Made by a program: the position numbers and the translations under genes. From positions 10,028-74,027 of the forward strand of contig CACZOA010000094.1 of the NCBI GenBank assembly GCA_902782665.1: a stretch of DNA of 64,000 nucleotides, in the 5' to 3' direction. The DNA comes from an uncultured Bacteroidales bacterium (GTDB lineage: Bacteria; Bacteroidota; Bacteroidia; Bacteroidales; Paludibacteraceae). The notes beneath the pieces are model-generated. The model was not told the origin of the DNA and did not search any database. It saw only the letters and a program-made list of their open reading frames with translations. Below, in pieces: positions 2,531-47,000 of this stretch (position 1 is the first letter of the stretch; every line of letters starts with the position of its first letter).

Positions 2531-2604
2531 AATTAAAACCAATTTTTGATATTTGTAAGGAGGACGAGGGTTGTGAAATTCTCGTTTTTTTTATGCTCCT
2601 CCTC

Positions 2605-3171
2605 TCAACCATTTTTTTCTCTTCCGAATAATTTTCCTAGTATCGCACCGCTACATCCTCCTATGATATGGCCGAAATGGGAAACATTATCTGCGACGAA
2701 GAGTCCATCCATCACCTCTTTGCCGATATAGCAGATGAAGACGAGGATGAATGTGAAAGGAATCTCTCCCGACTTACACATTGTGAGCGACGACATGATG
2801 ATGCACATGAACACTATTCCTGATGCTCCAACAATTCCCGTCGGCAAAAACAATGCGTTCAAAATTCCGGTGATGAATGCTGTTGCGAAGATCATTCCAA
2901 TCAGAGATAAACTTCCGTATTTCTCTTCCAAAAGAGGCATCAGCAGAAGAAGATAAATCGCGTTGCCGAAAAAGTGGCTGAAATTTGCGTGGCAGAAAAT
3001 ATGGGTGAAATACCCCATAAGAATCATCGGATTCGCCGACAAAACAGGTTTGCAACTAAATATATTGTTCACAACTCCCAGTGTCAGGTAGTTGCCGATT
3101 GTCGCTGCCAACATCAGTGCCAAGAATGTGATGGTCACTGGAGCGTTGAATGTAACTTTTATTCTGCTCAT
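2605..3171 (-). CDS. rhomboid-family intramembrane serine protease
   Basis: 188 aa and polytopic. Contains GASGIVF (GxSG catalytic Ser) and a downstream HFGHIIGG (catalytic His helix). Confidence 0.8.
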   Translation of the reverse strand: MSRIKVTFNAPVTITFLALMLAATIGNYLTLGVVNNIFSCKPVLSANPMILMGYFTHIFCHANFSHFFGNAIYLLLLMPLLEEKYGSLSLIGMIFATAFITGILNALFLPTGIVGASGIVFMCIIMSSLTMCKSGEIPFTFILVFICYIGKEVMDGLFVADNVSHFGHIIGGCSGAILGKLFGREKNG

Positions 3172-3194
3172 TTTTGATTTTGATTTTATTGATG

Positions 3195-3202
3195 CAAACT
3201 TA
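3195..3202 (-). promoter_or_regulatory. Bacteroidetes -7 promoter box (TAAGTTTG on minus strand) upstream of the rhomboid gene
   Basis: The plus strand reads caaactta, whose reverse complement is TAagTTTG (TAnnTTTG consensus). It lies 24 nt upstream of the ATG at 3171. Confidence 0.45.
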
Positions 3203-3654
3203 CAATAAATTTTGGAATGCGGAATGTTACCTCTGCATTTAATTGGGGAATTGTGTCTGATATGGAAATCTATATGTTAAATCGATTGACGAGTTTCGGG
3301 TGTCAAAGGAATCTAAACAAATTTTTCTTATAAATTAAGTTTTAGGTGCAAAAATATTAGAAAATATTGTCTGTAAAACTAAAGTTTTTTAACTTTGTAA
3401 GCAATATGGATTAGGATGATGAATTTAAGCAAAAACATACTGCCTGGAGTAGTTTCAATCTATGATCTAAAGAATTCTTTGGATTGTGATGGATATGACT
3501 CTAATCCTGACTTTATAATATTGAAGATAAAGCCTATCACTGCCTATTTTGACGGTGCGTTGGAGATGTCGGACCTAATAAAGTACGGAAACGGGTGGAT
3601 GCTATAAGTTCAGAGTGGATTAGAAGAAGGTGAAAGAGAAAAAAATAAAGTTAA

Positions 3655-4080
3655 ATGAGAATTCGCTTATTTCTATGTATTTGTCTTTGTGCAACACTTT
3701 CCGCACAAACCGTCCATTTTGTTTATGATAATGCGGGGAATCGTACAGCAAGGTACATTGATATGTCTAATAATCGTGATGGTGGAGTCGTTAATGAAGA
3801 GGATGAATCCAGAAGAGAGATAAATGATTCGTTGGCGTCGAATCATATTCATATTTATCCTAATCCTACCGACGGACACCTTAGCGTTAGAATAGACAGT
3901 TTGAAAAAAGACCAGAGTGCATATGCTCTACTTATAGATACATACGGAAAAAACATTGTTTACCAATACGCAGACAAAAATGATGTCACTATTGATTTTT
4001 CCGATAGAGATCCAGGAATATACATTTTGCGAATAGAGATTGACAATCTCAGCACGGAATGGAAAATAATTAAAAAATAA
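3655..4080 (+). CDS. small secreted protein: signal peptide + single RHS/YD repeat + T9SS type-A C-terminal sorting domain
   Basis: MRIRLFLCICLCATLSAQ signal peptide, then HFVYDNAGNRTARY (YD-repeat consensus). The C-terminal ~75 aa read IYPNPTDGHLSVRI...GIYILRIEIDN...WKIIKK, matching the T9SS CTD motifs. The stop is 4 nt before the Rhs ATG. Confidence 0.8.
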   Translation: MRIRLFLCICLCATLSAQTVHFVYDNAGNRTARYIDMSNNRDGGVVNEEDESRREINDSLASNHIHIYPNPTDGHLSVRIDSLKKDQSAYALLIDTYGKNIVYQYADKNDVTIDFSDRDPGIYILRIEIDNLSTEWKIIKK

Positions 4081-4084
4081 GAAG

Positions 4085-7000
4085 ATGATTCAGAAAATCC
4101 TTTTGTTGGTGTGGTCTTTATTATTTACCTCCGTTTGGTTGTCTGTCGCACAGAATCCGTCAGCTCAACCAGAAGGCGGGGACAGTTCTATTCCCGACTT
4201 TGAGAAAGGAGTTTATATGATGCCAGACGGCACCCCTACAGACGACAAGGCTCAAGGTGTTGTGTTTGGCAAAATAGGAAGTATCCTCAACGTCAGTGCA
4301 AATGGTTCCTTGATGTATCAAATTCCGATAGAAGTGCCATCTGGAGTCAATGGAATGAACCCGAGTATACAGCTTGTCTATAATTCACAGGCAGGCAACG
4401 GAATTGCTGGATACGGATTCAATCTTTCGTGTGTGTCGTCAATATACAGAGCAAGAAAGAATATGTTCTCTGATGGAAAACCGGACGCAATCCATTTGAC
4501 GGACGAGGACAATATCGAGTTGGATGGAGCAAGACTTATATTGACATCCGGAAATAATTTGGCTGACGGCTCGAAGTACCGCACTCAAGAAGAGACGTAC
4601 TGTGACATAACATTTCACAGTGGAGACGACAAGGATGGCTCTTACTTCAGTGTTGTGACAAAAGAGGGTGTCACGATGGTCTATGGAGCGTCGGGCGATG
4701 CAAGAGTAGAATCTCAGACATCCGGTGTGCCGTTGATTTGGCTTTTGACAAAAGTGACGGATCAAAATGGAAACTACATGTCATATGAGTATGGATTGGA
4801 CGATGAGAATGGCGAGTTTTGGCTGTCCAAGATACTCTACACTGGCAACGAGAATGCCAAAGTTGCACCTACTTGTGCCGTGGATTTCACCTACGACTCC
4901 GACCGAAAGGACTCAAGACTGCAATTCACTGCAGGCTCTAAATTGTCATCATCAAAACTGTTGAGAACCGTCGAAGTGAAGGCAAACGGCAAGCTTCTTA
5001 AAACATATACACTGTCTTACTTTTTTGACGGCTTTTACAACAAATTGAAATCCATTACTTTATCCAACGATAATGAGGAGAGTTTAGCTCCAATTGTCCT
5101 AAACTGGAGTAGTCTGGACAAAATCAGCGAATCTGCTCATAAAATTGAGAAGTCCGTCTTCGTCCCATTTGCAGAGGATGATGATTGTTATGATGAATAT
5201 AGTGTTTTGGTGGATGATTTCAATAATGACGGAATTTCCGATTTCATAAAGACTAACTCGGACATTCCAACTGGATTTTCTGCTATTGAAGGTGTCATTG
5301 TTGAATGGAATTTGTATTTATCCAGGAAGACGGAATCAGGTGTCATGTATGAAAAGGCAATGGAAGTGCCAATGGATTATTTTATAGGTGCATTGTTGCT
5401 TCATTCTTTGGACATTAATAAAGACGGAAAGAAAGACCTGATTGAAGTCAAAAGATCTGGTTCGTATTATTGGGTAGATGTCCTTTTGAACGATGGAGAA
5501 GGAACGTTCATCAGACAAAATTTTGAGACGGAGATCGCCCTTACAGACTCTGACCAATCGCAGCTTGAATTCAATGATTTTGACGGTGATGGATTCGTAG
5601 AGATGTTGGTGTTGCACAAAGAAGAGACAGAGATGTACGAAGATGTGGACTTCGCCGACTTGTACAAGATAGACTTTGAAGGCAAACATTTTTCTAAAAT
5701 ATCATCGTTTTCATATAAAAGTCAGTATTTAGCGGTGGACTCCAGATATTCCATAACAGATCTGAATGGAAACGGACTGCCGGAAATTTATAATAGAGCC
5801 TCTCATAAGGCATTTGAGTTCGACTCCAACACAAAAAACTTTGAAAAAATAGACTTCGAGGAGATACCGTTATATTTGGATATGGATGCCGGAGCCGACT
5901 TCGTTGACATCAATGGCGACGGATATACGGACGCTATTGCAGTTTCCCAATATGAAAACAAATGGAAAATCATGCTGTCGACTGGAACTGGGTTTGTGGA
6001 AATACCATGCCCACTCAAAATGGAGTGTGAAAAAACTAGTCCATATGTAGTAGATTGCATTGCTAAAGGTAAACGTTTTTATGCGGACTACAATAATGAC
6101 GGAACTCTCGACATTTTGGAAATCATCAATGACGAACTGACATTCCATTATTTCACAGGCAGTGGATTTGTATCAAAAAAATACTCGCAGTATGAGTTGC
6201 CAGACATTTTGACTAACAAACTGTACTATAACAAACATATACCGTTTTATGACATCACTGGCGACGGTGTGACAGACCTTATGTCGCTCTCAAAAAATGG
6301 GCTTGACGTTCATTTAGTCCACACACCAGAAATTGGCCGATACTTGTCTCAAATCAACGATGGGCTCATGTCGGTCCACACGGTGGATTACAAGACTCTG
6401 TCTGATCCAGTCACCTACCAGTCTGGTCAAAATGAGAGATCTTCCGAGGTGACGCAGCTTTGCATCCCTATCCATGTTGTTAGTCAGGTAACGACAGAAT
6501 CAAGAAATTATGAAAGCACGGAAAAATATTATTACAAAGGTTTGAGATTCCATCAAGAAAAGGGGATATTGGGCTTTGAAGAATTTACGCAAGACAACGA
6601 GACACTCAACAAAAGGAAGACAATCAAGTATGCCTACGATACCATCTTGTTTAATCCTCATCCTGTGGAGGAAACAACTTCCACCTCTGTCACAGACAGA
6701 CCGATAGAGAATGTTGTATTTGAATATAAGACAGAAAATCTAGGAACAAAGTCGGGGAAGCGGTGTTTCAAATACGTGGCAAAGAAGACAGTCACAAACC
6801 GTCTGACAGGCATGACAACTGTTATCGAAGCGTCGGACTATGAGGATGGAAATCCTCAAAAAATAACCACCACGCAAGGAAATGTTGTCGAGGAAAAGAC
6901 CATGACATACGAGAGAAAAGGATCATGGTGCAAAAATAGGGTGAGCTGCTTGACGACCAAAATGATTGCTGACGGCCAGGAACAAGTGCGTAAGGTGTTG

Positions 7001-10000
7001 TCTTTTTATGACGACAGGGGCAACCAGACGAAAGAGATTGCCGATCCGGACGACGAAAATGAATTTGTTACAGAATACAAGAACATCAACCATTTCGGAC
7101 AGGCTCTTTTGGTTGAGCGTTCGGCAAACGGTACAACACGTCGCTCTCAATTTGAATACTGTCCTTCGGGAAGGTTCATGACTGCCAAGACGGATGAAAT
7201 GGGCGACAGATATGAGTATGACTGGGATGAGAACACCGGTTTGTTGAAGAGTAAGACGGACCGTAAAGGCACAGTCCGCTTCTCCTATGACGGATTTGGC
7301 AATCTGACGGAGACTAATTTTGCAGATGGAATAACAGAGACAAGCGTTACAAGATGGGCAACGCAAGAAAACAGTCTGGGAGCAAAATATTACACCTATC
7401 ACGTTAAATCGGGAAGTGCCCCCGTCGTCACGTGGTATGACAATGTTGGCAATGAGGTGCTTAAAGAGACATTCGGACTGAATAACAAAAAAATCAGTGT
7501 CTTTACACAATATAATTCGGATGGAACGAAAAGCAGAGTGTCTGCACCTACATTCTCCTCAGATCCGCAAAGCTGGGCGACTGTATATTCCTACGATGAA
7601 TACGGAAGAGTCACCAGTCTGATAACACCAGCTGGAAAAAGCACCACCAAATATGAGAAAACTTCCACCACGACAGTATCGCCGGAAGGGAGAAAGAAGA
7701 TGAACTATGACGCTTCGGGAAGGGTTGTTAGCATAGAGACAAACGGCAAATCAGTAAGTTACGAGTATTATCCATCAGGAAAGATTAAGACCTCCACTCC
7801 TGAGGGTGGCACCTCTATCAGTGTCGAGTATGACTTGCAGGGAAGACGCACAAGACTGACTGATCCAGACGGTGGAGTACAGGAGACCAAATATAACGGT
7901 TTTGGCGAACTGCTGTGGTCGGGGCAGAGTGTTCATAAAAAAGGAGACACCATAGCCACAGAATACTCATACGCCGAAAACGGCTTGCTGCTTAGCAAGA
8001 CGACAAACGGAAAGACAACCAGCTACGACTATGATAGTCACAACCGCATCGTCGCCATAGAAATTCAGGGTGAGCACAGGCAGTCGTTCTCATACGACGA
8101 GTTTGACCGTGTTGTAAGACAGAAGGAGGAGATAGACGGCAAAATGTTTGAAAGCCGAAAAGAGTACGACGAGTTTGGACGTGTAAGGAAAGAAACATAT
8201 CCGTCTGGATTCTTCACCGTCAACCACTATGACCGCAACGGCATCTTATACGAGGTGACAGACAGTTTGGATCGGTCTGTCTGGAAACTTTTAGAAGAGG
8301 ATGCGTATGGTCAGAGCCTCCGAACGCAAAAGGGAGCCAGGGAGAGCGTTTTTGGATATGACGAGCAAGGGCACACCCTCTCCGTCTATGCAGAAGGTGT
8401 GGTGGACATGCTGTACGCCTATGATTCAAGAGGCAACCTTGAGTCGAGAACAGACAATATGACGAGCCAGCAGGAGATGTTCGGCTACGACGATATGAAC
8501 CGTCTGACAAACTGGGATATCTACCGTGACGGCACCTTGGTGAAGGAAAATAGTCTGACTTTTGACGGGCAGGGTAATATAAAGACGAAGAGCGATCTGG
8601 GCGACTGTGTGCTGAACTACGGAGACAACGGCAGACCTCACGCATTGACATCCATCGAAGGAGCTGTGACAGGCATTCCCGTCACAAAACTGACGCTCGC
8701 CTACACAGATTTTCAAAAGGTTGAGAAAATTGAGGAGGGGAACAAGAGCTATGGCATATTCTATGGTGTCGACGAACATAGACGCAAATCCGTCTATATG
8801 GAAAACGGCAAGACAAAACGTGTCCGCTATTATTTCGGAAATTACGAAGAAGAGACAGATTCCATTGGTAATGTCCGAAAAATTCACTACCTTGCAGGCG
8901 GAAGTCTGTTCATACAGAATTGCGGCAACGATTCCCTGCTGTATGCCTACCACGATTTCCAGGGCTCTTTGATAGCTTTGACGGATGAAGACGGCAATGT
9001 GCTTGAGCGATATGCGTACGACCCTTGGGGAGCACGTCGAAATCCCGAGAAATGGGAAGAGAAGGATCAGCGTACGAAACTTCTGACAGACAGAGGCTAC
9101 ACCGGTCATGAGCATATTGATGCGTTTGCCATCATCAACATGAACGGACGCATCTACGATCCGCTCACAGCCACATTCTTCTCCGTCGACCCATACGTGC
9201 AGTCGCCAGATGATTGGCTCAACTACAACCGCTATGCCTACTGCATGTTCAACCCGTTCCTGTATGTGGATCCGAGCGGCTACACTTGGTTCAGCAAGTT
9301 AGGAAACTGGTTTAGAAACAACTGGGAAAGCATAGTCACGACAGTAGTGACGGTCGCTGTCGGAGTTGCAGTCGGAGCCGCTGTGGTAGCTTCATGTGGA
9401 ACAGCCGCTCCATTGTTGGTGGCGGTATGTGCTGGAACAGCCGCAGGATTTGCAGGAGGAGTGACCAGCGGAATCCTGTCCGGTCAAGATCTAGGCGGCG
9501 TTATGAAGTCTGGACTTATAGGAGCTGGCACCGGGCTGGTTTTCGGAGCGTTGGGAGGAGTCGCATCCACGTTTGCACCGGCAGGAGCATTGTGGGGCAG
9601 TCTTTATGGAGCAGGCACTGGCTCCGTAATTGGCGGTGTGGGCAGTGTCATGACGGGAGGCGACATAAAAGAAGGAATAATCTTTGGTGCCGCGACAGGA
9701 CTTGTCGGAGGAGGCATCCAAGGCTATTGCTCAGCCAAGAGTCAGGGGCTTAATCCATGGACGGGAAAGGAAATAATGCCGAAGATACCGAATTATGATT
9801 TAACACTGGAAACTGGAGATTTTGCTGAGAATGTGACGTTGTATAGAAAAACGTCGGGAAGTGAAGGAAAACCAGGTTATTTGTTCATGACTGACAACTA
9901 TGAGTATGCTCAATCATATGTTCAAAATGGTGGTTCTGTTGAATGTGTGGTTTTACCAAGATCAGCAATCTATGTTATGTCTAATAATGGTTCGGGTGAT

Positions 10001-10114
10001 TTGGTCATTACTCCTAACCCACAAATACACAAAATCAATGGTGTCGAATATAGAGGTTGTGAATATACTTTTTCTCCTAGAGTAAAAGGTCTTATTGTAC
10101 CATTAATGAAGTAG
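4085..10114 (+). CDS. RHS-repeat polymorphic toxin (signal peptide, SpvB-like domain, FG-GAP/VCBS propeller, YD-repeat shell, Rhs core, glycine-zipper pre-toxin, C-terminal toxin tip)
   Basis: N-terminal signal peptide [23 protein letters not shown]. SpvB-like motif [36 protein letters not shown]. Seven DxNxDGxxD FG-GAP-like repeats ([63 protein letters not shown]). More than 15 YD repeats ([24 protein letters not shown], ...). Rhs core ending [14 protein letters not shown]...[11 protein letters not shown]. Confidence 0.95.
   Translation: [2009 protein letters not shown]
9251..9283 (+). other. Rhs core terminal motif [11 protein letters not shown] (PxxxxDPxG-type autoproteolysis / core-tip boundary)
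   Basis: Direct translation. Everything downstream (about 276 aa) is the variable C-terminal region. Confidence 0.75.
9671..9766 (+). repeat. recombination/homology box, copy 0 (encodes [32 protein letters not shown]) inside the full-length rhs gene
   Basis: Near-identical DNA recurs at 10738-10833 and 13709-13805. Fragments recur at 11806-11827 and 12614-12631. Confidence 0.9.
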
Positions 10115-10117: not shown

Positions 10118-10705
10118 ATGGAAAAGACAGAATTAATAATAAATATAAGAAGTTTACTTGATAGTATAGAATCCAGTCTGAAAAAAGAATGTGTCAACAA
10201 GATTCCTGATGTGGAGAAATTCATATGCATAAAAATTGATGATAGTTTTAATCCATTTCTATTTAGAGATTTGATTACTTCTATTCCGCAGGAAACAGAG
10301 GAAATAATGGATTATATAACTTTTTGTAATTATGTTGATTCTGTTCAGAATTTGTTCAGTTGGGTGGATATATGTCCATTTAAAGTAAATGATAGTTATA
10401 TTTTATATATTGTAAAACTTGTTGTTAAATGGAACAAACAACAAGAAATTGGTTTTCATGGATCTTTCCCATCCTTCCGTCACTATCCCATATATGGACA
10501 AAAATATGATTTAAATTATTTTTGGCAAGTAAGTGATAGGGATTATCAAAAGAGGGAAGAAAAATGGTGTAGACGTAGCCGGAGAATTTTAGAAAAATAC
10601 AAGATTCAAAAATGGTTTGCTAAACGAATATATAGGTACTTTGGTAAAAAAATAAACATCTTGGATTTGGATAAAGAAATGAAAAGTATTAATGTCTTTT
10701 CGTGA
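10118..10705 (+). CDS. putative cognate immunity protein of the main Rhs toxin tip
   Basis: 195-aa ORF starting 3 nt after the rhs stop. It is AT-rich, has no signal peptide, and sits where polymorphic-toxin immunity genes sit. Confidence 0.6.
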   Translation: MEKTELIINIRSLLDSIESSLKKECVNKIPDVEKFICIKIDDSFNPFLFRDLITSIPQETEEIMDYITFCNYVDSVQNLFSWVDICPFKVNDSYILYIVKLVVKWNKQQEIGFHGSFPSFRHYPIYGQKYDLNYFWQVSDRDYQKREEKWCRRSRRILEKYKIQKWFAKRIYRYFGKKINILDLDKEMKSINVFS

Positions 10706-11844: not shown

Positions 11845-12267
11845 ATGAGTCAAATAAACTTTTATGACAACAAAAGACATTTAATAATGTCTTTTTCTAA
11901 TTTTTCTATCCTTGAACAGGATATAGGACTGATAAGGTTTCATATCGAAATGTCATTTGGAATTTTCAATGTTTCGACTGAAACAGAAATATACATGCCA
12001 TATCTGCAGTGTTTTTCTGATGAGTTAAAAAATCTATATGACCATTTTACAGAAAAACAAAAAGCTGTATTTAGTCCAATAGAAAGAGATGTCGACATAT
12101 TATTTGAAACAGGAGGGAATATGGGATATATTTCAGCTTTAATAAATTTATATTACGATTCAATCTGCGAGAATAACGCTACTTTAACATGTAAATATAC
12201 TATCGACCAATCATTTTTGCCAGAATTGATAGAAGAGATAGAGACAACATTGGAGGAGCTTAGGTAG
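11845..12267 (+). CDS. immunity-like protein with no adjacent toxin tip
   Basis: 140-aa acidic cytoplasmic ORF within the toxin/immunity array, preceded only by a box scar. Confidence 0.45.
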   Translation: MSQINFYDNKRHLIMSFSNFSILEQDIGLIRFHIEMSFGIFNVSTETEIYMPYLQCFSDELKNLYDHFTEKQKAVFSPIERDVDILFETGGNMGYISALINLYYDSICENNATLTCKYTIDQSFLPELIEEIETTLEELR

Positions 12268-12299
12268 AATACTTATAAAACAATAAATTTTTTATAGAA

Positions 12300-12557
12300 A
12301 TGAATAGACATAATTGCAGAGTTTGTGGGTATTATATTGATGATTTACCATGGGGTAAAGATGGCAATTGTCCTACTTATGAAATTTGTCCTTGTTGTGG
12401 GGTCGAATTTGGAAATGAAGATTGTACAAAGGAATCTACAAAACAATATAGAGAAAAATGGATAAATGATGGAACAAAATGGTTTGAACCAGAAGAAAAG
12501 CCCCAAAACTGGAATAAGGAGGAACAATTTATAAATATTCCACAAGAATTTTTATAA
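12300..12557 (+). CDS. CPCC-type cysteine-rich (zinc-ribbon) small protein
   Basis: CRVCGY...(25 aa)...ICPCCGVEFGNED gives two CxxC pairs with the CPCC signature. Proteins of this type are recurrent in polymorphic-toxin immunity loci. Confidence 0.6.
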   Translation: MNRHNCRVCGYYIDDLPWGKDGNCPTYEICPCCGVEFGNEDCTKESTKQYREKWINDGTKWFEPEEKPQNWNKEEQFINIPQEFL

Positions 12558-12559
12558 AT

Positions 12560-12748
12560 CAAACAAATCGCATCTACGAGTTTTCTTGTGAGGTGACGAG
12601 AGAACTCAGCAATCAGACTTGTCGGCGAGAGTATGTTCATCCAATTGAAGGTCAACGCTTTCCTGGACCGCACAGAGTTATAATAGGTTCAGAGGGTGAA
12701 ATTTATTATACACCCGATCATTATAAAACTTTCTTAAAAATCAAATAG
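12560..12748 (+). pseudogene. 5'-truncated barnase/RNase Sa (N1/T1)-family RNase toxin tip
   Basis: The frame ending at TAG 12746-12748 reads ...SNQTCRREYVHPIEGQRFPGPHRVIIGSEGEIYYTPDHYKTFLKIK. Compare the barnase C-terminus ...SDRILYSSDWLIYKTTDHYQTFTKIR. It has no start and is preceded by an 18-nt homology-box fragment (12614-12631). Confidence 0.75.
12614..12631 (+). repeat. scar of the homology box (cagacttgtcggcgagag) fused to the truncated RNase tip
   Basis: Matches cggacttgtcggcggagg (the GLVGGG-coding part of the box). Confidence 0.55.
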
Positions 12749-12750
12749 AA

Positions 12751-13179
12751 ATGTATTATTATACTGATATTGAAGAAATAAATATTGATGCAAACTGTTA
12801 TTTGGCTCGAATAGAATTAAACCCTGAAGAAACTGAATCTTCTATGTTTAGTAAATATAATAATGTTTTGCATTTCCCAGATTACTTTGGCTTTAATTGG
12901 GATGCATTTGATGAGTGTATCAGTGATTTAAGTTGGATAGATCAACCTATCATTTGTATTGTACATTCACCTTTAAATGTCTCAGACAAAGAATTCTTGT
13001 ATAGATATTTGAAGTGTATAGATGACGTGGAGAAAGATTGGAGTATATTCATAAATTCAATTGACGATAATCCCCAAAACGCATGGAAACGTCAGTATGT
13101 TAAGTATGTTAGATTCTATTTCCATGAATGTGACAGAGAAAGGATTTGTTCGACATTGTCAAATGGCTATACGAGATAA
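12751..13179 (+). CDS. barstar-family RNase inhibitor (immunity protein)
   Basis: LHFPDYFGFNWDAFDECISDLSWIDQPIICIVH parallels barstar [30 protein letters not shown]. The ATG lies 2 nt after the RNase remnant stop. Confidence 0.8.
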   Translation: MYYYTDIEEINIDANCYLARIELNPEETESSMFSKYNNVLHFPDYFGFNWDAFDECISDLSWIDQPIICIVHSPLNVSDKEFLYRYLKCIDDVEKDWSIFINSIDDNPQNAWKRQYVKYVRFYFHECDRERICSTLSNGYTR

Positions 13180-13223
13180 CGATATCCTACGAATCATACT
13201 ATTTTGAATAGATATAAAGGAAA

Positions 13224-13622
13224 ATGATTGGAAAAATTGATTTGTTGGATAGAGAAAAAAGTGGATTTGTAGAAAAAGAAATTTTTCAAAATATCCCTTT
13301 GGTAAAAGAAAATGGAAATAGTTGCATTATACAAATTATTTCAGAAAATTCCTTAAAAAAATTCTATCTTTTTAAAAACGGAATTTATTCTTTTTTTCTA
13401 ACTTACGAATTGTTCTATTTTTTAGTAATTATAATGAAAAATAAAAAATTTGCACTGAAACAATATGACGATAATATTTTTGCCATCGATTTAACTGAAG
13501 ATGAATTGGCAGATGTTTACGAAACAGTATCCGACCTGATACCAGGAAGTTTTGACTATCACAATAAACCAACATTAATAACTAATAAGTTAGAACTTTT
13601 GGTAGATATTTTTATGCTGTAA
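13224..13622 (+). CDS. hypothetical immunity-like protein
   Basis: 132-aa very AT-rich ORF inside the array, with no recognisable motif. Confidence 0.35.
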   Translation: MIGKIDLLDREKSGFVEKEIFQNIPLVKENGNSCIIQIISENSLKKFYLFKNGIYSFFLTYELFYFLVIIMKNKKFALKQYDDNIFAIDLTEDELADVYETVSDLIPGSFDYHNKPTLITNKLELLVDIFML

Positions 13623-13648
13623 AAACCTCTTTTTTTCTGGCTTTATAA

Positions 13649-14209
13649 AACCTCTACGGCACAGCACTCGGCGGAGTTAGTGCGACAATAAACGGTGGCG
13701 ACACCTGCGAGGAAATAATCTTCGGTGCTGCGACCGGACTTGTCGGCGGAGGCTTCCAAGGCTACTGTTCAGCCAAGAATCAGGGGCTTAATCCGTGGAC
13801 GGGAGCCAAACTGCCAGAGACGACGGTGAACACTCCGAATGTGCCTTTTGAAGCACAGACGGAGATGTCCGTGGCTGAGAAAGCAACGACGGGAGGAGAA
13901 AGACAATTAGATTTAACAAGTAAAGAATTAAATATAGAAAATCCATCTACTCCTGTTGGAAGACGTGGGTCTGAAATGAATTGTGAGAAATCGAATTCGT
14001 TCGTAAAAATAGGAACACGTACATATACAGGACATGCTTTAGATCGAATGCAGGGTCGTGGATTTGTTCCTTCTGTTGTGGAGGATGCAATAGGAAATCC
14101 ATTGAAAACGTATTTAGGGAGTAGACCCAATACTACAGTTTATGAAAATATTAACATTAAAGTTGTAATCAATCAGAATGGTGATGTTATAACGGTAATA
14201 CCTCGATAA
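13649..14209 (+). CDS. orphan Rhs C-terminal toxin cassette 2: homology box + DUF4258-like (RelE/BECR-fold, predicted RNase) tip
   Basis: The frame opens after TAA 13646-13648. It encodes ...[79 protein letters not shown]. The tip then reads [26 protein letters not shown]...[14 protein letters not shown], resembling the DUF4258 pattern HAxxRMxxRGI...V...I...vITv. Confidence 0.7.
   Translation, partial: [186 protein letters not shown]
13709..13805 (+). repeat. recombination/homology box, copy 2
   Basis: gaggaaataatcttcggtgctgcgaccggacttgtcggcggaggcttccaaggctactgttcagccaagaatcaggggcttaatccgtggacggga. Weaker homology to the main gene continues upstream to about 13661. Confidence 0.9.
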
Positions 14210-14219
14210 AATTTGATAT

Positions 14220-14633
14220 ATGTTACATGTAGATATAAATGCTGGCAATATAGTTTTTTCTATTAGTCCAAGATACATATCAAAAGAAGAGTCTTTTGAT
14301 TTGGTATTGGTGAATTCAGATGTGAGATTGTCGGCCAAAGGATTGACTTTGAACGAAGAGATAGAATTGTTTGATTATGATTTTGTCTCTTTGCGAAATA
14401 AGTTGGAATTGTTAGTGAGTAATAAAGAAGACGTTGTGTCTTGGAATACGGAAGAAGAAACAATATTTTTTTCTATAACGAAAAAAGAACAATGTTTTAT
14501 TTGGAATCTAAGGTATATCATTGGAGGAAAAGAAGATGATTTCTTGAATTTTAATTTTGTGTTATCCGAAACGGATATGAACTATATAATTAGTGAAATT
14601 TATTCGATAATAGATTGGGTCAATATGAGTTAA
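14220..14633 (+). CDS. putative immunity protein for orphan tip 2
   Basis: 137-aa AT-rich ORF starting 10 nt after the tip stop. Confidence 0.5.
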   Translation: MLHVDINAGNIVFSISPRYISKEESFDLVLVNSDVRLSAKGLTLNEEIELFDYDFVSLRNKLELLVSNKEDVVSWNTEEETIFFSITKKEQCFIWNLRYIIGGKEDDFLNFNFVLSETDMNYIISEIYSIIDWVNMS

Positions 14634-14851: not shown

Positions 14852-14935
14852 ATTTATCTATTATTATAATATTCTTCTATCTCGTCGAATTGACGTTATT
14901 TTATGGTGAATATTAAGTTTACTAATAGAAAATCA

Positions 14936-38581: not shown

Positions 38582-39790
38582 TTATTCTGCTGTAGTATTA
38601 TCTACCAATTTCTTCATTCCGTCGAAATTGAATCCTAGAGAGAATCGCAATGTTCTGTCAAGAGGACAAGTACTGCTTGAACGAGATGCTATCAAATAAG
38701 CAGCACTAAGTTCAAACACTTTCATCTTGAATCCGACTCCGGCTGCAAAATACTTTCTGTTTCCTTTTGTCTCATTCTCGTGGAAATATCCGAAGCGAGC
38801 CATGAACATGTCTCTGTATGAGTATTCTGCTCCCAAACTCCATGTTACTTCCTTCATTTCCTCGCCAAAACCACCTGAATCACCGAAAGATTTGAAGATT
38901 CCTGAGATTGCACCATGGTCACGGTATTTTTGCAATGCATCCTCATATTCCTCTCTGGTTTCGTAGTCATCTTCAAGAGGAGTTGTTGGAACAAGAAGCT
39001 TGTTCAAGTCGAATGACACAGCGAACTTGTTGTATGCGTCAACAGGGAATTCGTAATTGACTCCTAATCTCCAGTTGGTAGGAAGATACTGATATGTCGC
39101 TCCGTCATCATATGTAGGCTTAGCACCGATGTTTGAGATGTTAGTACCGAAATTCAACTTTGCGACTCTCTTGTCTGACAAGTCAAATGGGCGGCTATAG
39201 AATGCAGAAACGTCGGCTGCAACTGTTTTAGCTGCAGAGTATGCCTCTTCGTCAACAACTCCGTTCATCAAATCAGAAAGAATGAATCTTAGTGCTACGG
39301 ATGCGTTCCAATACTGGCTCAATGCACGTGAGTAAGCGACGTCGATAGCCATCTCGTATGGTTTTGCTGTTCCCTGTGAAATGACCTCTCCTGAAGGGCC
39401 AGGCATATCAGACAAGTTGATTTCTCCATATGAGAAGTATCTCAATGAAGCCGACAACGCTTGTTTTTCATCTAGTTTATAGTAGCCAACAAGGTATCCA
39501 AGGTTGATGTCATTTACAATGCTTCTTAGCCAAGGAGTGAAAGAGATCGCTACACCTCCTTTGTTTTCCATTGTGGCATATTTCGATGGATTCCAATGTT
39601 GAGAATATAGGTCGGCGGAGGTTGCTGCACCAACATCTCCCATACCACCACCTCTTGCATCAGGGGCAATACTCAATGAAGGTATTGCAGTCTGTAAAGG
39701 GTTGAAGTAATCGCTTTTCTTTTCTGCGCTTACACTCAATACGGATAGCATTATAGCTGTCCCTGCCAAACTCGCTTTTATTCTTTTCAT
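38582..39790 (-). CDS. porV: T9SS outer-membrane shuttle protein PorV (LptO)
   Basis: 402 aa with a signal peptide, SLSIAPDARGGGMGDVGAATSAD, and a beta-barrel pattern. Lies immediately downstream of porU, as in other Bacteroidetes. Confidence 0.92.
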   Translation of the reverse strand: MKRIKASLAGTAIMLSVLSVSAEKKSDYFNPLQTAIPSLSIAPDARGGGMGDVGAATSADLYSQHWNPSKYATMENKGGVAISFTPWLRSIVNDINLGYLVGYYKLDEKQALSASLRYFSYGEINLSDMPGPSGEVISQGTAKPYEMAIDVAYSRALSQYWNASVALRFILSDLMNGVVDEEAYSAAKTVAADVSAFYSRPFDLSDKRVAKLNFGTNISNIGAKPTYDDGATYQYLPTNWRLGVNYEFPVDAYNKFAVSFDLNKLLVPTTPLEDDYETREEYEDALQKYRDHGAISGIFKSFGDSGGFGEEMKEVTWSLGAEYSYRDMFMARFGYFHENETKGNRKYFAAGVGFKMKVFELSAAYLIASRSSSTCPLDRTLRFSLGFNFDGMKKLVDNTTAE

Positions 39791-39842: not shown

Positions 39843-42800
39843 TTATTGTGCAATAACCATGATTTTTTCAGTTTTTTCTGCAAAATCTGATTTTTCAGTA
39901 GCTATGCGAATATACAGTAAGTATAGTCCTGAGGCAATTTTGCCGTTCTCATTCAAGTCCCACTCGATGTTCCATGTTCCGTCTGTCGGCTTGTCTTTAA
40001 ACTCTTTTCTTAGAATCTCTCTGCCAGACACCTCGGTCAATGAACATTCTACAGTCTGAACTTCATCAGGTCTGTTTGTCTTTATGTAAGCTGTAAATTT
40101 GTCCTTGGCTGGGTTAGGGTAGACTGTTAGTGTCTCTATCTCTGGCGCCAAGCTTTCGTTTACATAAATTCGGATAGTTGATTCGGATGAGTTGCTTTGC
40201 AAATCCCATGCTTTGATCTTGATTGTGTGCCAGCCTTCACTCAATGCCTCTTCTATGTGGTATTCAACTCTTCCTTCTGTACAACTTGCTGTATTATATT
40301 TGAAATATGAATTTAAAGAGATGACGTTCTTTGTGTTGTCGTCGATTGTCAATGTGATGTTATGACCGATACTGCTGCCTGTCGCATTTATACCGCTTGC
40401 ATCCGACAAATCCACATAAATCATAGGGTTAGGATTCACTTTGTATCCATCCTTGTAATTGTCTCCGTTTGTTGTCACGACAAGATTTGGTCCGACGCTG
40501 TCTGGTGTCACATCTGGTGCACTGCCTCCGATGTACAAGGTTTCGTCTGCTCCCATAGCATCCCAACCATTTGACTCGTCGTATGCATACATAGACAATC
40601 TGCCGAAATCGATATTATAGTTGATGTCTTTAGGTATGATCATCTGTAGTTCAAATTCTCCATTAGTTACGATAGAAGAACCTGTATACAATGTGCTCTG
40701 TCTGTCGTAATAAGTGTAAGGGTCGATGCCGTTTTTATTTCCTTTCGTGAACGCTTTTACCTCTTTGTCTTTTAGTGTGGCGTTTACTATTCCGTTGAAT
40801 TGTTTCAACGTGTTGCCTGACTCGTCTTCTACGTGACAATAAATCTTAACTTTGGATAGCGCTTTCAGAGTGTCTGTTTTTGAGACACTTCCGTCTGAAT
40901 TCAAAGTTACAATTGAGTCGACCGCTATATTCAATTCAGGAACTTTTAATTTTAGACCTGGATCTCCCAACAAAATATAAACCATTTTGTTCGAGTCCTG
41001 ACCTCTTGCTGTTTTTGCCGCTCTGTATATTTTACCTAAGCGGTACTCGTTCTCTGGATTAAAAGCTTGTTTTAAGAAATCCTTGTCTAACGATAGGTTT
41101 GGTGATGCGTAGGCTGTGCGTACGGCTCCAATAGAAGCAATCGCTCCTCCGTTTGGATTAAGCATGATTTCCTCTCCGTAACTTGTTCTGAAATCATCAT
41201 ACTGAGACAGATTACAGCTTCCTGCAAACCACACAGGATATATTTTGTTGTATATCGTCTGTACTTGTGATATTGAGTAAGAATGCTCAGCACTTATGGC
41301 GTTATACGAACTGTGTCCTAAGTAGTTGAAAATCAAAGAGCCTTCTGTGAATTTCTTTGTTATGGCTGCAGTCACTTCTGGGTATCTGCGTGATCCTCCA
41401 CTCATGTCACAAGTGAAGTTGTCCCAATAGAAACGAGTTATATTCATTCTTGGTTCAACTGTTTCTATCGTTGATATTGCCTCCTCTTGATGTGATAAAA
41501 AAGAGTGGTATCCTGAAGATGAGCTTTGTTCTTCATTGTCATCTGCCAAAGCAAGAACTTTTGTTCTCCATTCGCCTGGCTCCAATGCATAGTATTGTTT
41601 TACTTTGTTGACAAGATTTTCTGCTTGCTCTGCTTTTATGACAGGGAATCTTCCTACTCCAATGTTTATTCGTTTATTGGTGTATAGGTTGTTGTAACCT
41701 ATAGATCCGTCTTCAACATAGCCGAAATAGTCGTCGCAAGAGTAGCTGGATGTTTCGTTCAATGATTTCACGGATTGGTATGTCAACATTTTGTTGTTGT
41801 CATTCTTCTTTAGCTTTCCTCTGTTGTCGTATGTTCCATCTCCCATCAACAGCAGATATTGAGGATAAATTCCATATTCAGATTCCGACGCTTTGTCCCA
41901 TAGCATTTTCATGAACGCTCTGATGGCTGTAGGATCTGGAGTTCCGCTCGAGAATTCATTGAACACTTGCTCTGCAGTGACAACCGCTACATTCATTCCA
42001 TCCTCTTTTTGATGGAACTCTGCTAATTCTTTGGCTTGGTCGATGAATTCAGGGTTGGTCACTACTACGTATTCAATATTGTTAAATGCGTGCAGATTCT
42101 GGTTGTCTACATTTCCGACAACTTCTGGAGTAGGGAATCCTCCTCCCCAGTTGACCAAGATGTACCTTCCGACTGTAGGTCTTGTTTTGACTGTGAATAT
42201 CAAACTGTCTTTGCTTAGTCTTGTTGGCACTCTTTTGACATCACCGATCTCTGATACGTCCCAAACCTGGATGTTAGAATTTGAATTCAATGCGGCGTAT
42301 GTGATGTTGTATTCTGTCGACGATGGAGTGACTGGTATCATCTGGTAGCTTACATTGCCTTTCAGATTGCATTTTGCTGCAGCGATTATATAGTCAATGT
42401 ATCCGGCTCCGGTAGTTGATCCTGTAGTGTAGTCGTATGTGGCCGATATGGAATTGGATGATGTCTGTGTGACGTCTGCTTCCATTATCTTCTCGTATCC
42501 AAGATCATATTTGGCAGCTTTGTCGAATGAAACTGATTTGTCTGTTAAATCGGTCTTCAGATTGAATTCTCCTATAGTTGACGATGCTGACAGCACATTG
42601 CTGTAGATTCTTCCAGTTTCTCCCGCTATAAGATTGGTGAATGAGAAAGAGAATGTCTTGCTGTCGCCATTGCTGAATTTGTTGCCATACCAGTTTCTGC
42701 CGGTTTTGGCTATGTTGATGTCATCAAATTTTTGCCATTTGATGGCTGTATATGTAGTCTCTTTTATCTCTTCTTCTGTCAATTCCTCAGCGAACTCAAT

Positions 42801-43253
42801 TCTCTTAGCTTCAGAACTTTCCTCATGTAGGAAATAGTAGGAATAGTCAGATGAGTAGTTTTCTGTTATACCAATATAATTGGTCGCGGATGCGTTTATC
42901 TTTGTCAACCCCACAACACCTCTCAAGTAGAATGCGATTTTGTCTCCTAAATCAACCACTGGCTGGTCTGCCAAATCATCTACATATTTGTTGCTTTCTG
43001 TGAAGTCTTCGTTCAACAACTCTCCTCCATATCCGCGTAGGTGTACATTCTTAGGGTTGGAAAAACCCATCTCTCGCAATTCATCGTAAGTGAATGAGTA
43101 GAGTCCTTCCTCCTGTACACGAATTTTTACAGTTCGTCCGCTTGACAAAACTGATTTATTAGTATATGAACGCATGTTTTGTGCATTGACTCCACATATT
43201 GAAGCCAATGTCATTGCAAACGTGCATGTCAATACATTTCTAAATAACTTCAT
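39843..43253 (-). CDS. porU: T9SS C-terminal signal peptidase/sortase PorU (C25 family), copy 1
   Basis: 1136 aa. Gingipain-like catalytic region with NYLGHSSYNAIS and WFAGSCNLSQYDD (His/Cys dyad context). C-terminal CTD-like LTVYPNPAKDKF...GLYLLYIRIA. Confidence 0.93.
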   Translation of the reverse strand: MKLFRNVLTCTFAMTLASICGVNAQNMRSYTNKSVLSSGRTVKIRVQEEGLYSFTYDELREMGFSNPKNVHLRGYGGELLNEDFTESNKYVDDLADQPVVDLGDKIAFYLRGVVGLTKINASATNYIGITENYSSDYSYYFLHEESSEAKRIEFAEELTEEEIKETTYTAIKWQKFDDINIAKTGRNWYGNKFSNGDSKTFSFSFTNLIAGETGRIYSNVLSASSTIGEFNLKTDLTDKSVSFDKAAKYDLGYEKIMEADVTQTSSNSISATYDYTTGSTTGAGYIDYIIAAAKCNLKGNVSYQMIPVTPSSTEYNITYAALNSNSNIQVWDVSEIGDVKRVPTRLSKDSLIFTVKTRPTVGRYILVNWGGGFPTPEVVGNVDNQNLHAFNNIEYVVVTNPEFIDQAKELAEFHQKEDGMNVAVVTAEQVFNEFSSGTPDPTAIRAFMKMLWDKASESEYGIYPQYLLLMGDGTYDNRGKLKKNDNNKMLTYQSVKSLNETSSYSCDDYFGYVEDGSIGYNNLYTNKRINIGVGRFPVIKAEQAENLVNKVKQYYALEPGEWRTKVLALADDNEEQSSSSGYHSFLSHQEEAISTIETVEPRMNITRFYWDNFTCDMSGGSRRYPEVTAAITKKFTEGSLIFNYLGHSSYNAISAEHSYSISQVQTIYNKIYPVWFAGSCNLSQYDDFRTSYGEEIMLNPNGGAIASIGAVRTAYASPNLSLDKDFLKQAFNPENEYRLGKIYRAAKTARGQDSNKMVYILLGDPGLKLKVPELNIAVDSIVTLNSDGSVSKTDTLKALSKVKIYCHVEDESGNTLKQFNGIVNATLKDKEVKAFTKGNKNGIDPYTYYDRQSTLYTGSSIVTNGEFELQMIIPKDINYNIDFGRLSMYAYDESNGWDAMGADETLYIGGSAPDVTPDSVGPNLVVTTNGDNYKDGYKVNPNPMIYVDLSDASGINATGSSIGHNITLTIDDNTKNVISLNSYFKYNTASCTEGRVEYHIEEALSEGWHTIKIKAWDLQSNSSESTIRIYVNESLAPEIETLTVYPNPAKDKFTAYIKTNRPDEVQTVECSLTEVSGREILRKEFKDKPTDGTWNIEWDLNENGKIASGLYLLYIRIATEKSDFAEKTEKIMVIAQ

Positions 43254-44036: not shown

Positions 44037-47000
44037 TTATTGATCGACGACGATGATCTTTTCGGTTTTTTCTGCAAAATCTGATTTTTCAGTGGCTATG
44101 CGAACGTACAATAGGTATAGTCCATTGGAAATTCTTCCGCTATCGTTCAGATTCCACTCGATTTTCCATGTCCCGTCTGTTGTCTTGTCTTTCAAATCTT
44201 TTCTTGAAATCTGTCGTCCTGATAAATCCAGCAGTGTGCACTCCATGGTTTGTACCTCATCTGGTCTGTTTGTCTTTATGTAGGCTGTGAATTTGTCTTT
44301 GACAGGGTTCGGATATACTGTCAATGTCTCTATATCTGGAGCGATATTTTCACATACATAGATTTTGATTGTGGACTCTGATGAGTTGTTTTGCAAATCC
44401 CATGCTTTGACCTTGATGGTGTGCCAACCTTCACTCAATGCCTCTTCTGTATGGTATTCCACTCTTCCTTCTGTGCAGCTTGAAGTATTGTATGAGAAGT
44501 AAGAGTTCAAATTGATGACATTTTTTGTATTCTCATCAATTGTCAATGTGATGTTATGACCGATACTGCTTCCTGTGACGTTTATTCCACTCGCGTCGGC
44601 CAAATCCACATAAATCATAGGGTTCGGATTGACTTTGTAGCCATCTTTGTAATTTCCACCATTGGTTGTCACGTTGATGTACGGACCAACGTCGTCTGGC
44701 TCGATATCTGACGCACTGCCTCCTATAAGGATGTCTTCGTTTGCTCCCATCGCATCCCAACCATTCTCTTCGTCGTAGGCATACATGGAGAGTCTTCCAT
44801 AGTCAACTTTATAGTTGATGTCTTTGGGGATAATCATCTGAAAATCAAATTTTCCGTTGGATATGACGGATGAACCTGAATATAGGGTGTTCGTATATTC
44901 ATAATAATTGAATGGATCAGCTCTTTCAAACACTTTTTTATTGTCGACTTCTCTAGTGAAAACTTTGTTGGCTTTTGTGGCTATTTTCGTTTTTTTGTCT
45001 TTGAGAGTTGCTCTGGCAACCCCATTATATTGGCTCAGCACATTGCCGGTCTCGTCCTCAACGTGACAATAAACCTTCACTTTGGATAGCGCTTTCAACG
45101 TGTCTGCTTTGACGACGGATCCATCTCTATTCAAAGTAACTATGGAATCAACCACTAAATTTAGCTCAGGAATTTTTAATCTTATGCCTGGGTCTCCCAA
45201 TAGTACATAATATGATTTGTCGCTGTATGACCCTAGTTGTGTCTTGGCTTCTCTGTAAATCTTACCTAAACGGTAATCATTATCTGAATTGAATGTTTGT
45301 CTCAAAAATGCCTTGTCAATCGACAGATTGGCAGTTATGTAGGCTGTGCGTACAGCACCGATGGATGCTATCGCTCCTCCATGTGAGTTTAATATTATCT
45401 CTTCTCCGAAACTTGGTCTTAAATCGTCAAATTGAGAAAGATTACAACTTCCGGCAAACCATAATGGATATATTTTGTTGTATATGCTTTTTGCTTGTGT
45501 GATTGAATAGGCATGTTCCGCACTGATTGCATTGTAAGAACTGTGTCCGAGATAGTTGAAAATCAGTGTTCCTTCTGAAAATTTCTTTGTTATTTCGGCT
45601 GTCACTTCAGGATATCTGTTTGATCCTCCGCTCACGTCACAAGTATATTTATCCCAGTATATACGGGAAACGTTCATCCTTGGTTCAGCTGATTCTATTG
45701 TTGAAATGGCTTCCTCTTGTTGATATAGGAATGCATGATATGATGACGATGTTGTCTCTGTTTTTTCATTGTCATCTCCCAGGGCAACAATCTTTGTCCT
45801 CCAATTTCCAGGTTCTGATGCGTAATATTGCTTTACCTTGTCGACAAGTGCCTCTGCTTGCTTGGCTGTCGTGACAGGGAATCGTCCTACTCCAATATTT
45901 AGCCGTTTGTTCATATGTATGTAGTCGTAGCCTGAAGTGTTGTCTTCAACATAGCCGAAATAATCGTCGGATGTATAGCTGGTTGATTCACTTAGCGATT
46001 TGACGGATTGGTATGTCAGCATTTTGTTGTTCTCGTTTGTCTTAATTTTTCCCCTGTTGTCGAAAGTTCCGTCTCCAATCAATAATAGATATTGTGGGAA
46101 AATTCCGTAATCCGACACTGATGCTTTGTCCCATAGCATCTTCATGAATGCTCTGATGGCTGTTGGGTCTGGTGTTCCGCTCGAGAATTCATTGAACACT
46201 TGGTCTGCAGTGACAACAACGGTGCTCATTCCGTCTTCTTTCTGATGAAAATCTGCGATCTCTTTGGCTTGGTCGATAAATTCCGGATTGGTAACTACCA
46301 CGTATTCGATATCTTTTAGCGCATGAATATTCTGGTTGTCTACATTTCCGACTACTTCTGGAGTCGGAAATCCTCCATTGGGGTTGAACATGATATATCT
46401 GCCGACGGTTGGTCTCGTTTGGACTGTGAATATCAGGCTGTCTTTGCTCAATCTTGTCGGCACTCTTCTGACATCGCCGATTTCTGACACATCCCAAACT
46501 TGAATGGTGGAATTGGAATTCAAAGCTGCGTATGTGATGTTTGTCTTTTTGGAAGATGGCCCGATTGGGATCATTTGGTAGTCGACGTTGCTTCTCAAAT
46601 TGCAGTTGGCGGCGGCGATTATATAATCGATGTATCCTGCTCCTGTAATTGATTCTGTTGAGTATTTGTATGTGGCGGATATTGTATTGTCTTCCGACTG
46701 TGTGACATCAACCACGATTGTCTTCTCAAATCCAAGTATGTACTCGTCTTCATTTTCAGCTTTTATTTTCCTTTTGTCAAAATCCTCCGATTTGTTTGTT
46801 GTGTTTGTCAAGATGCTGAATTCACTTATGGACGTCGATGAAGTCATTATATTGCTATATATATAACCTGTGGCTCCGGCAATGATGTTGTCGAATTGGA
46901 ACGTGAATTTTTTGCTGTCGCCATCGTTGAACTTGCTTCCATACCAGTTTCTGCCGGTCTTGGCGATGTTTATGTCGTCGAATTTCTGCCATTTGATGGC

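Follow-up and report, generated by a model that had tools for sequence, protein, structure and literature searches.

The window analysed here is a 64,000-nucleotide (64-kb) stretch of DNA from an uncultured Bacteroidales bacterium of the Paludibacteraceae (assembly GCA_902782665.1, contig CACZOA010000094.1, positions 10,028 to 74,027 of the forward strand). Our subject is a pair of adjoining genes within it: a small gene, whose 141-residue product joins a YD beta-hairpin to a type-A C-terminal sorting domain (CTD) of the type IX (T9SS) secretion system, and, directly downstream, a gene encoding a 2009-residue RHS polymorphic toxin that has a Sec-type signal peptide of its own. An initial annotation, made by reading the sequence without database searches, had placed the two open reading frames (ORFs) at 3655..4080 and 4085..10114, separated by four nucleotides (TAA-GAAG-ATG). 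Both ORFs and their spacing are as it gave them, all the peptides that it quoted are present in the translations, and the two genes are probably coupled in the manner of an operon. The features of the locus are as follows.

3655..4080, plus strand: small gene (141 residues), YD-hairpin/T9SS-CTD protein, putative adaptor (ORF and translation)
3655..3708, plus strand: signal peptide of the small protein, residues 1-18, MRIRLFLCICLCATLSAQ (hydrophobic N-terminus by inspection; AlphaFold2 (AF2) helix 3-14)
3709..3762, plus strand: YD beta-hairpin, residues 19-36, TVHFVYDNAGNRTARYID (invariant Y24, D25, G28, N29 and R30; AF2 strands)
3763..3852, plus strand: variable acidic linker, residues 37-66 (predicted local distance difference test score (pLDDT) below 50 at residues 38-52; unconserved alignment columns)
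3853..4077, plus strand: T9SS type-A C-terminal sorting domain, residues 67-141, ending WKIIKK (TIGR04183, PF18962, Foldseek)
4081..4084, plus strand: 4-nt spacer GAAG, between the stop codon TAA (4078-4080) and the ATG (4085) of the RHS gene (sequence)
4085..10114, plus strand: 2009-residue Sec-signal SpvB/FG-GAP/RHS polymorphic toxin, TcB-TcC-fusion-like (ORF and domain matches)
4085..4150, plus strand: signal peptide of the RHS protein, residues 1-22 (sequence inspection)
4295..4813, plus strand: SpvB domain, residues 71-243 (PF03534, E 1.7e-18)
5411..5947, plus strand: FG-GAP beta-propeller region, residues 443-621 (PF13517, E 6.5e-16; PF01839)
7091..9016, plus strand: RHS/YD repeat shell, residues ~1003-1644 (PF05593, 133.4 bits; TIGR01643; NF041261)
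9017..9280, plus strand: Rhs-associated core, residues 1645-1732, ending YVDPSGY, a motif of DPxG type (TIGR03696, 48.6 bits)
9281..10111, plus strand: variable C-terminal tip of 277 residues, a Gly/Ala-rich hydrophobic stretch followed by a ~110-residue domain (no Pfam or PDB relative found)
10118..10705, plus strand: candidate cognate immunity gene, 195 residues (assigned by position alone; no Pfam, NCBIfam or PDB match to its product)
11845..14633, plus strand: low-GC array of orphan immunity-type genes (GC content 0.32-0.33)

Family models recognise one part of the small protein, the type-A sorting domain. Residues 67-141 score 49.4 bits against TIGR04183 (cut-off 23) and cover the profile in full (1-72 of 72), and the score against PF18962 is 41.7 bits (cut-off 27), again over the whole profile. 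The CTD is thus complete, as the initial annotation had claimed, and it lies at the extreme C-terminus, ending at residue 141 of 141. An AF2 model, for which 34 family sequences were aligned, has a mean pLDDT of 77.5 and comprises a signal-peptide helix (residues 3-14), a beta-hairpin (20-24/30-35, pLDDT ~70-74), a disordered linker (38-52, pLDDT below 50) and a beta-sandwich (56-140, pLDDT 84-92). In a Foldseek search, the best PDB match of the CTD is 8glk_D (TM-score 0.77, 30% identity), which is the CTD of NucA bound in the Flavobacterium johnsoniae T9SS complex; 8qb1 (TM-score 0.71) and the CTD of mirolase are also among the structural matches. Q18 is at least 90% conserved in the family alignment, and we take the signal peptide to be cleaved before it, following the Bacteroidetes Q-rule. 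The acidic linker is presumably the site of the PorU cleavage region.

The hairpin requires more care. It had been described as one YD repeat, and what stands of that description is an Rhs-type motif that is invariant in the family; the element itself is a single hairpin, half a repeat unit. The window hairpin peptide alone matches no family; homologous hairpin peptides match RHS_repeat at sub-threshold E values of 0.06-0.09, and one reaches 15.8 bits, which is exactly the TIGR01643 cut-off. A profile of the hairpin, compared with the RHS partner, gave fragmentary and non-significant local matches alone. Because the profile matches are sub-threshold, assignment to the Rhs type rests on the motif, on its invariance across the family, and on the partner RHS protein, which contains repeats of a pattern identical to that of the small-protein motif.

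For the large protein, the initial annotation had described a Sec signal peptide and no PAAR, VgrG, prePAAR, CdiA/TPS or LXG features. Inspection agrees on the signal peptide, and the family search returned no PAAR, VgrG, DUF4123, two-partner secretion (TPS), LXG or CTD match. The RHS shell matches solved Rhs cocoons of the type VI (T6SS) secretion system, for example 8cp6 and 7q97. Collinearity of the RHS gene with that of the closest relative, in locus L011, ends at 9934, beyond which the tips differ. L011 (94% identical) has another toxin tip; an rhs C-terminal piece like that of the window survives downstream as an orphan (14800-15320), and such an exchange of tips together with an orphan piece is typical of Rhs C-terminal toxin-tip displacement. 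In the window, members of the downstream array include two WapI-like genes (11845-12267 and 14220-14633) and one of Barstar type (12751-13179).

Two further observations belong with these genes. The leader upstream of the small gene holds a 63-residue ORF (3416-3607, plus strand), which is without family match and is kept in L011 merely within a 99%-identical flank. Many RHS partners at other loci (L012, L014, L017, L019, L021, L038, L042 and others) carry, between signal peptide and SpvB domain at residues ~25-90, a short, conserved N-terminal segment of the pattern LNxPxTGxxxYxARDSIxLxPGFxY, which the window RHS protein lacks.

The small-protein family and its pairing with RHS genes

The family to which the small protein belongs has no name and is defined here by alignment. 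Its hallmarks are a signal peptide, the motif Phi-x-Y-x-YD-x-A-GNR-x-x-R-x-I, a linker of 30-70 residues, a CTD ending (K/R)(I/V)(I/V)K and an adjoining SpvB-type RHS gene, all of which the window protein has. A word-indexed search returned 66 homologs, nearly all of them 130-150 residues long and aligned over their full length at 28-39% identity. In an exhaustive profile search, at least 440 clusters (50% identity) reached E<=1e-30, and the best 150 of these 440 are almost all of 135-160 residues. The motif, which takes the form Phi-x-Y-x-YD-x-A-GNR-Phi-x-R-x-I in the representatives, is almost invariant: for 141 of 143 of them, which share no more than 50% identity, conservation is 100% at Y, D, G and N and 99% at R. 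Across the 143 representatives the motif starts straight after the signal peptide (median position 26), and the distance from YD to the start of the CTD is 33-73 residues (median 39). Alignment-invariant positions of the small proteins are Y24, D25, G28, N29 and R30, together with positions in the CTD that include the terminal WKIIK, and the motif is stricter than the generic RHS repeat. Cluster members of 105 residues (P0009-P0011, P0071, P0072 and others) are the same gene called from Met37; this start, frequent in public annotations, drops the signal peptide and the YD hairpin, leaving an apparent bare CTD.

Compared with its counterpart in L011, the small gene carries 8 synonymous and 8 non-synonymous changes, every one in the linker or the CTD (synonymous divergence dS 0.097, non-synonymous divergence dN 0.024, dN/dS ~0.25), and it is under purifying selection. 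Over window positions 3172-4080, identity to L011 is 99% in the flanks and in a leader of 483 nt; divergence sets in within the stretch that encodes the CTD of the small protein (dS 0.20) and runs on through the RHS gene (94% identity). Given that divergence starts inside the small gene, a recombination or fast-evolving tract would take in its 3' half.

Conserved synteny had been set as a test by the initial annotation, and it holds in both directions. In all four distant homologs looked up, the small gene lies directly upstream of an SpvB/FG-GAP/RHS gene encoding 2059-2301 residues, with immunity-type genes after it. A forward scan of one genome per GTDB species gave at least 46 loci, 44 of which have enough downstream sequence. 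The loci listed span the Bacteroidales (Paludibacteraceae, Prevotella, Porphyromonas, Tannerella, Muribaculaceae, Rikenella), the Marinilabiliales (Draconibacterium, Maribellus), the Flavobacteriales, the Chitinophagales and the Saprospiraceae. An RHS-like ORF starts between -26 and +132 nt from the small gene in 32 of the 44 loci listed and lies within 1.5 kb in 3 more, and an rhs neighbourhood is present in 40. By inspection, nearly all of the ~45 partner RHS proteins carry a Sec-type signal peptide, and they have no CTD.

The reverse scan started from 80 metagenome loci retrieved by the SpvB N-terminal motif of the RHS protein alone. The small gene is upstream in 49 of these, with a GC content of 0.31-0.44 in every one, while 23 of the 31 loci without it have a GC content of at least 0.54 and proteobacterial-style signal peptides. 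Dereplicating at 90% and dividing the loci into low GC (at most 0.45) and high GC (at least 0.54), which is merely a proxy for phylum, we find the small gene in 35 of the 37 low-GC clusters with enough upstream sequence and in none of the ~14 evaluable high-GC clusters. The conserved pairing far exceeds chance. On sequence grounds, the window pair appears to be a minimal version of a module found across the Bacteroidota, and the pattern fits an older Sec-exported SpvB-RHS type that may have gained this partner in the T9SS-bearing phylum.

Individual loci add to this picture. One contig (L007) carries two complete modules in tandem, each RHS gene with its own copy of the small gene. In Porphyromonas gulae DSM 15663 (L018), of the sister species to Porphyromonas gingivalis, 35 nt separate the gene of a family member (LSFVYDASGNRVARVI…TWKIIKK) from the SpvB-type RHS gene downstream of it. 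In a gut lineage (L001-L003, ~1-9600), a YD-CTD/RHS/Imm44 module borders a Bacteroidales T6SS locus (TssF, gp25/TssE, TssC) and lies beside conjugative-element genes (ArdcN) of a putative conjugative element, one of the contigs having an intervening transposase.

The hairpin, linker and CTD also occur as the C-terminal tail of larger proteins encoded directly upstream of an RHS gene, namely a 525-residue, beta-helix-like protein of Rikenella (L041) and a 656-residue protein of Tannerella with four PPC domains (L050). The PPC repeats of the latter are 47-62% identical to the region between signal peptide and SpvB domain in the RHS proteins of L004-6 and L041. Thus one and the same PPC accessory domain occurs on either polypeptide, which provides a Rosetta-stone-type argument for a single assembly. 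A CTD in cis was found in 1 of 120 RHS-shell homologs, P0330, a DUF6531-type RHS protein that seems to have arisen when a DUF7619-CTD gene next to its own was fused on; in L139 the two are separate. Such rarity fits a constraint, since the C-terminus of an RHS protein is the toxin tip. DUF6531-type RHS genes of the Bacteroidota differ in their CTD-linked context. In P0330 (L137:5001-9953), the RHS C-terminus continues, beyond a PLA2-like region, into a DUF7619/SprB/CTD tail. At L139:372-12253, a DUF6531-type RHS gene has a gene for a large CARDB protein upstream and one for a 938-residue DUF7619+CTD protein downstream; the YD hairpin is not present in this 938-residue protein.

Of the related loci, 12 of 56 and 30 of 80 have a third gene, encoding a secreted product; it either lies upstream of the small gene or separates that gene from the RHS gene, and the window has no such gene. 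In its product, the signal peptide is followed by a fibre-like part that is variable (LTD in L013) and by a C-terminal domain, conserved and ~100 residues long, in which the pattern NKHLPxIPSA..KIEELTLY is followed by a coiled coil and for which there was no Pfam, NCBIfam or PDB match. Copies lie at L009:8630-9985, L013:8426-9895 and L020:6529-7938, and in ~40 further loci (e.g. L064, L070, L103, L106).

Functional coupling of the small gene and the RHS gene is supported by every check that could be run.

A proposed trans-acting adaptor and its alternatives

Given that both proteins carry Sec-type signal peptides, both should reach the periplasm. In solved Rhs cocoons, the C-terminal toxin tip is held inside the shell. 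Since the C-terminus of the RHS protein is the toxin tip, downstream of the core, the protein cannot end in a T9SS sorting domain. Our favoured reading, the case for which seems to us about evenly balanced, is that the small protein acts in trans as a T9SS adaptor or tether for the Sec-exported Rhs toxin; direct binding of the hairpin to the RHS protein, and export as against surface tethering, are the points of this reading that we infer. The small protein would supply the sorting domain in trans. Its near-invariant YD hairpin would mimic one repeat of an Rhs shell and bind the RHS protein at some feature that is generic and conserved, for instance the propeller or the free edge of a sheet, while the flexible linker of 30-70 residues would connect the hairpin to a standard type-A CTD, to be handled by the SprA/PorV translocon and the PorU sortase. 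Two outcomes can be envisaged: the bound RHS protein may be exported by piggyback, or PorU may cut off the CTD and anchor the hairpin-linker peptide, leaving the RHS protein tethered at the cell surface. The toxin would then be placed for contact-dependent attack on competitors, and the product of the downstream gene would protect the producer.

A stronger form of this proposal is that a folded Rhs cocoon of ~220 kDa, itself lacking a sorting signal, is exported or surface-mounted by the T9SS while attached to a ~5-kDa hairpin peptide, the CTD of which acts in trans. This would be the first T9SS 'hitchhiker' cargo and a T6SS-independent, contact-dependent Rhs route throughout the Bacteroidota; we put it forward tentatively, as a possibility that is more doubtful than probable.

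Several observations weigh against the adaptor reading. The initial annotation had suggested that the small protein might dock onto or complement the RHS shell through its YD strand. We compared 24 partnered RHS proteins with 7-10 unpartnered ones over the ~1350 residues after the SpvB motif, a region that stops ~300 residues short of the end of the shell. There is no hairpin-sized, group-specific indel over these ~1350 residues, the alignment differing between the groups at four group-specific residues and no more. With no hairpin-sized gap in the partnered proteins, the literal missing-strand model is without support, at least in the region aligned. The two modules of L007 encode small proteins that share 92% identity and RHS proteins that share only 32%, so that any interface must be generic, with no sign of a co-evolving one; gene conversion is an alternative explanation for this pattern of identities. 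In the forward scan, the order is reversed in 4-5 of the 44 loci, where an RHS gene or rhs fragments lie 0.5-3 kb upstream of the small gene, and 4 of the 44 have no RHS gene nearby, 2 of these being short contigs. Because the third gene is present in many loci, a two-component picture may be incomplete. The hairpin, modelled in the lone protein at a pLDDT of ~70-74, might instead lie against the CTD of the same chain. The SprA pore measures ~70 angstroms; a folded Rhs cocoon and its propeller may together exceed this width, in which case tethering would be favoured over piggyback export. Finally, neither binding nor T9SS-dependent export of the pair is reported in the literature searched.

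Of the alternatives, the one that survives best is co-expression without binding, which we consider unlikely but deserving of serious weight. The small protein would in that case be an independent T9SS cargo, for instance a surface-anchored peptide or an accessory factor (acting on target cells, RHS folding or gating), and the RHS protein would leave the periplasm in outer-membrane vesicles, by lysis or by an unknown pathway. The identities in L007, the solo small genes and variable gene order at some loci, the negative outcome of the split-hairpin comparison and the possible clash between cocoon size and the SprA pore are all as expected if the two products do not bind, as is the fact that high-GC SpvB-RHS proteins do without such a partner. 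However, co-expression without binding leaves unexplained why the conserved element should be an Rhs-type hairpin at a fixed distance from the CTD, why ~95% of low-GC SpvB-RHS genes have the small gene immediately upstream, and why a PPC accessory domain should be found on either partner.

It is very improbable that the RHS protein is a T6SS effector whose delivery has nothing to do with the small CTD gene. The pairs of L001-L003 do adjoin Bacteroidales T6SS genes, yet the RHS proteins of these loci carry a Sec signal peptide, which is incompatible with cytoplasmic loading onto a T6SS. There is no PAAR, VgrG or DUF4123 match, and the pairing follows low-GC, Bacteroidota-like loci rather than T6SS genes. 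The initial annotation had reported no T6SS gene in the window, and we agree: no T6SS family was matched among the ORFs scanned (those of at least 180 residues in 14-64 kb and the main ORFs of 0.8-14.6 kb), nor is a T6SS gene listed for the other looked-up loci. With a Sec signal peptide, no PAAR or VgrG and no T6SS gene in the window, this candidate is essentially excluded.

Hardly credible at all is that the small ORF was left over when a longer RHS gene, with a T9SS-secreted product, decayed, an origin that the initial annotation had named as fatal to its proposal, or is a leader ORF serving translational coupling alone: the ORF is very short, some annotations give the 105-residue version from Met37 and RHS loci are rich in fragments, but decay is effectively refuted by the large family of uniform length (at least 440 clusters, the best 150 nearly all full-length), by signal peptide, near-invariant hairpin and complete CTD being intact in the sequences aligned or motif-checked, by purifying selection (dN/dS ~0.25) and by the separate copy for each RHS gene in the L007 tandem array.

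Known systems, T9SS genes of the window and significance

Genes of this kind have been seen side by side before. In Porphyromonas gingivalis 381, the homologous PGN_1816-1825 is the locus most strongly induced in surface translocation, alongside T9SS genes; within it PGN_1818, the largest of the Rhs genes, has the gene of a T9SS cargo, PGN_1817, upstream, and the authors suggest 'a possible mechanistic linkage' (Moradali et al. 2019, PMC6775972). We count this co-induction in favour of the adaptor reading. Most Apibacter rhs genes (SpvB/TcdB type) adjoin genes for type-A sorting domains and are probably T9SS-associated (Steele & Moran 2021, PMC8125069), an association that a 2026 preprint restates, likewise as an inference. 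PGN_1817/1818 and the Apibacter genes are the same gene pair in the same order, PGN_1817 being compared here by its published description rather than by its sequence. What these papers offer is adjacency with a suggested T9SS link; they contain no hairpin, phylum-wide family, reverse association or mechanism. Throughout the literature searched, we found no description of the YD hairpin, family-wide analysis, experiment or demonstrated mechanism. The initial annotation knew of no described mechanism of this kind, a statement to be qualified: the adjacency and the suspected T9SS link were in print, as was a parallel case for TANFOR toxins. Gene adjacency being already published, what is new is the conserved hairpin and its scale; the locus adds one more member to a kind of gene pair noticed before and never characterised.

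Comparable arrangements surround other toxins. TANFOR toxins, which are polymorphic toxins of the Bacteroidetes, lack a CTD, and the gene that immediately precedes theirs encodes a predicted T9SS substrate with a CTD (Jana et al. 2020, PMC7073777). Like the window RHS protein, they are CTD-less with a CTD-bearing gene immediately upstream, and CTD domains are enriched nearby; they differ in toxin scaffold, and their CTD partners are large SprB-repeat proteins without a YD hairpin. Canonical type-A cargo (RgpB, F. johnsoniae NucA, mirolase) shares with the small protein a signal peptide and a C-terminal beta-sandwich CTD of ~75 residues. Unlike such cargo, the small protein has a passenger of only ~45 residues (hairpin and linker), with no enzyme or adhesin, and it is presumed to carry or hold another protein.

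In its domains, the RHS protein resembles the TcB-TcC cocoon of Tc (toxin complex) toxins, with which it shares SpvB, the FG-GAP propeller, the RHS shell, the Rhs core and a variable, putatively toxic C-terminal tip, TcdB_toxin_midN being present in homologs. The Tc shell is made of two chains that form one cocoon, which gives the completion of a YD shell between chains a precedent. In contrast to the Tc toxin, the window protein is fused into one chain and begins with a Sec signal peptide; no TcA-family match was found among the window ORFs scanned (64 kb of genome), and none is listed for the looked-up loci. The downstream array of immunity-type genes points to bacterial targets. According to one account, canonical Tc toxins are released by lysis (PMC10847048).

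With the adaptors and chaperones of T6SS PAAR-Rhs proteins (Eag, DUF4123/Tap), the pair would share the idea of a small, upstream-encoded partner that links a large toxin to a secretion machine, and with 'hitchhiker' export by the twin-arginine translocation (Tat) pathway the idea of a signal-less protein carried by a signal-bearing partner. Unlike the PAAR-Rhs systems, the window pair is without PAAR, VgrG or Eag, would act in the periplasm and through the T9SS, and has an Rhs-like hairpin as its proposed recognition element.

T9SS components are themselves encoded in the window:

38582..39790, minus strand: PorV, T9SS outer-membrane shuttle (NF033710, 461.7 bits, cut-off 250)
39843..43253, minus strand: PorU sortase paralog 1 (NF033707, 928.9 bits, cut-off 420)
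44037..47510, minus strand: PorU sortase paralog 2 (NF033707, 909.5 bits)

GldG and GldD are also encoded in the 64-kb window, within which there is no gldKLMN or sprA. None of PorV, the two PorU paralogs, GldG and GldD had been mentioned in the initial annotation. Both PorU paralogs are full-length, with a fumarylacetoacetate-hydrolase-family gene (43269-43880) between them, and the duplication of PorU could mean two classes of cargo processing. Elsewhere, the window holds three DUF6515 paralogs (27765-31900, plus strand), with an MgsA-type AAA ATPase gene (29731-31086, minus strand) between the second and the third, and genes for a C10 (streptopain-like) peptidase with a Spi inhibitor domain (22359-23786, minus strand) and a 713-residue coiled-coil protein (16875-19016, minus strand), the N-terminus of which weakly matches a 'mosaic adhesive trimer' model.

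The gene pair touches two open questions: the route out of the cell for Sec-exported Rhs toxins that have neither PAAR nor TcA, and whether the T9SS is able to transport proteins that lack a CTD. The module provides an easily mutated handle on both, with five invariant residues in an 18-residue hairpin, and it is present in tractable or cultured organisms, namely P. gingivalis 381/33277 (from the literature) and P. gulae, Draconibacterium and Maribellus (from the loci found here). Should the adaptor model be true, it would constitute a new mode of cargo recruitment for the T9SS, and would give a function to hundreds of mini-proteins annotated as 'T9SS type A sorting domain-containing', some of them mis-called from an internal Met. 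It would also point to a widespread weapon of bacterial competition among the Bacteroidota of the gut, the mouth and the environment.

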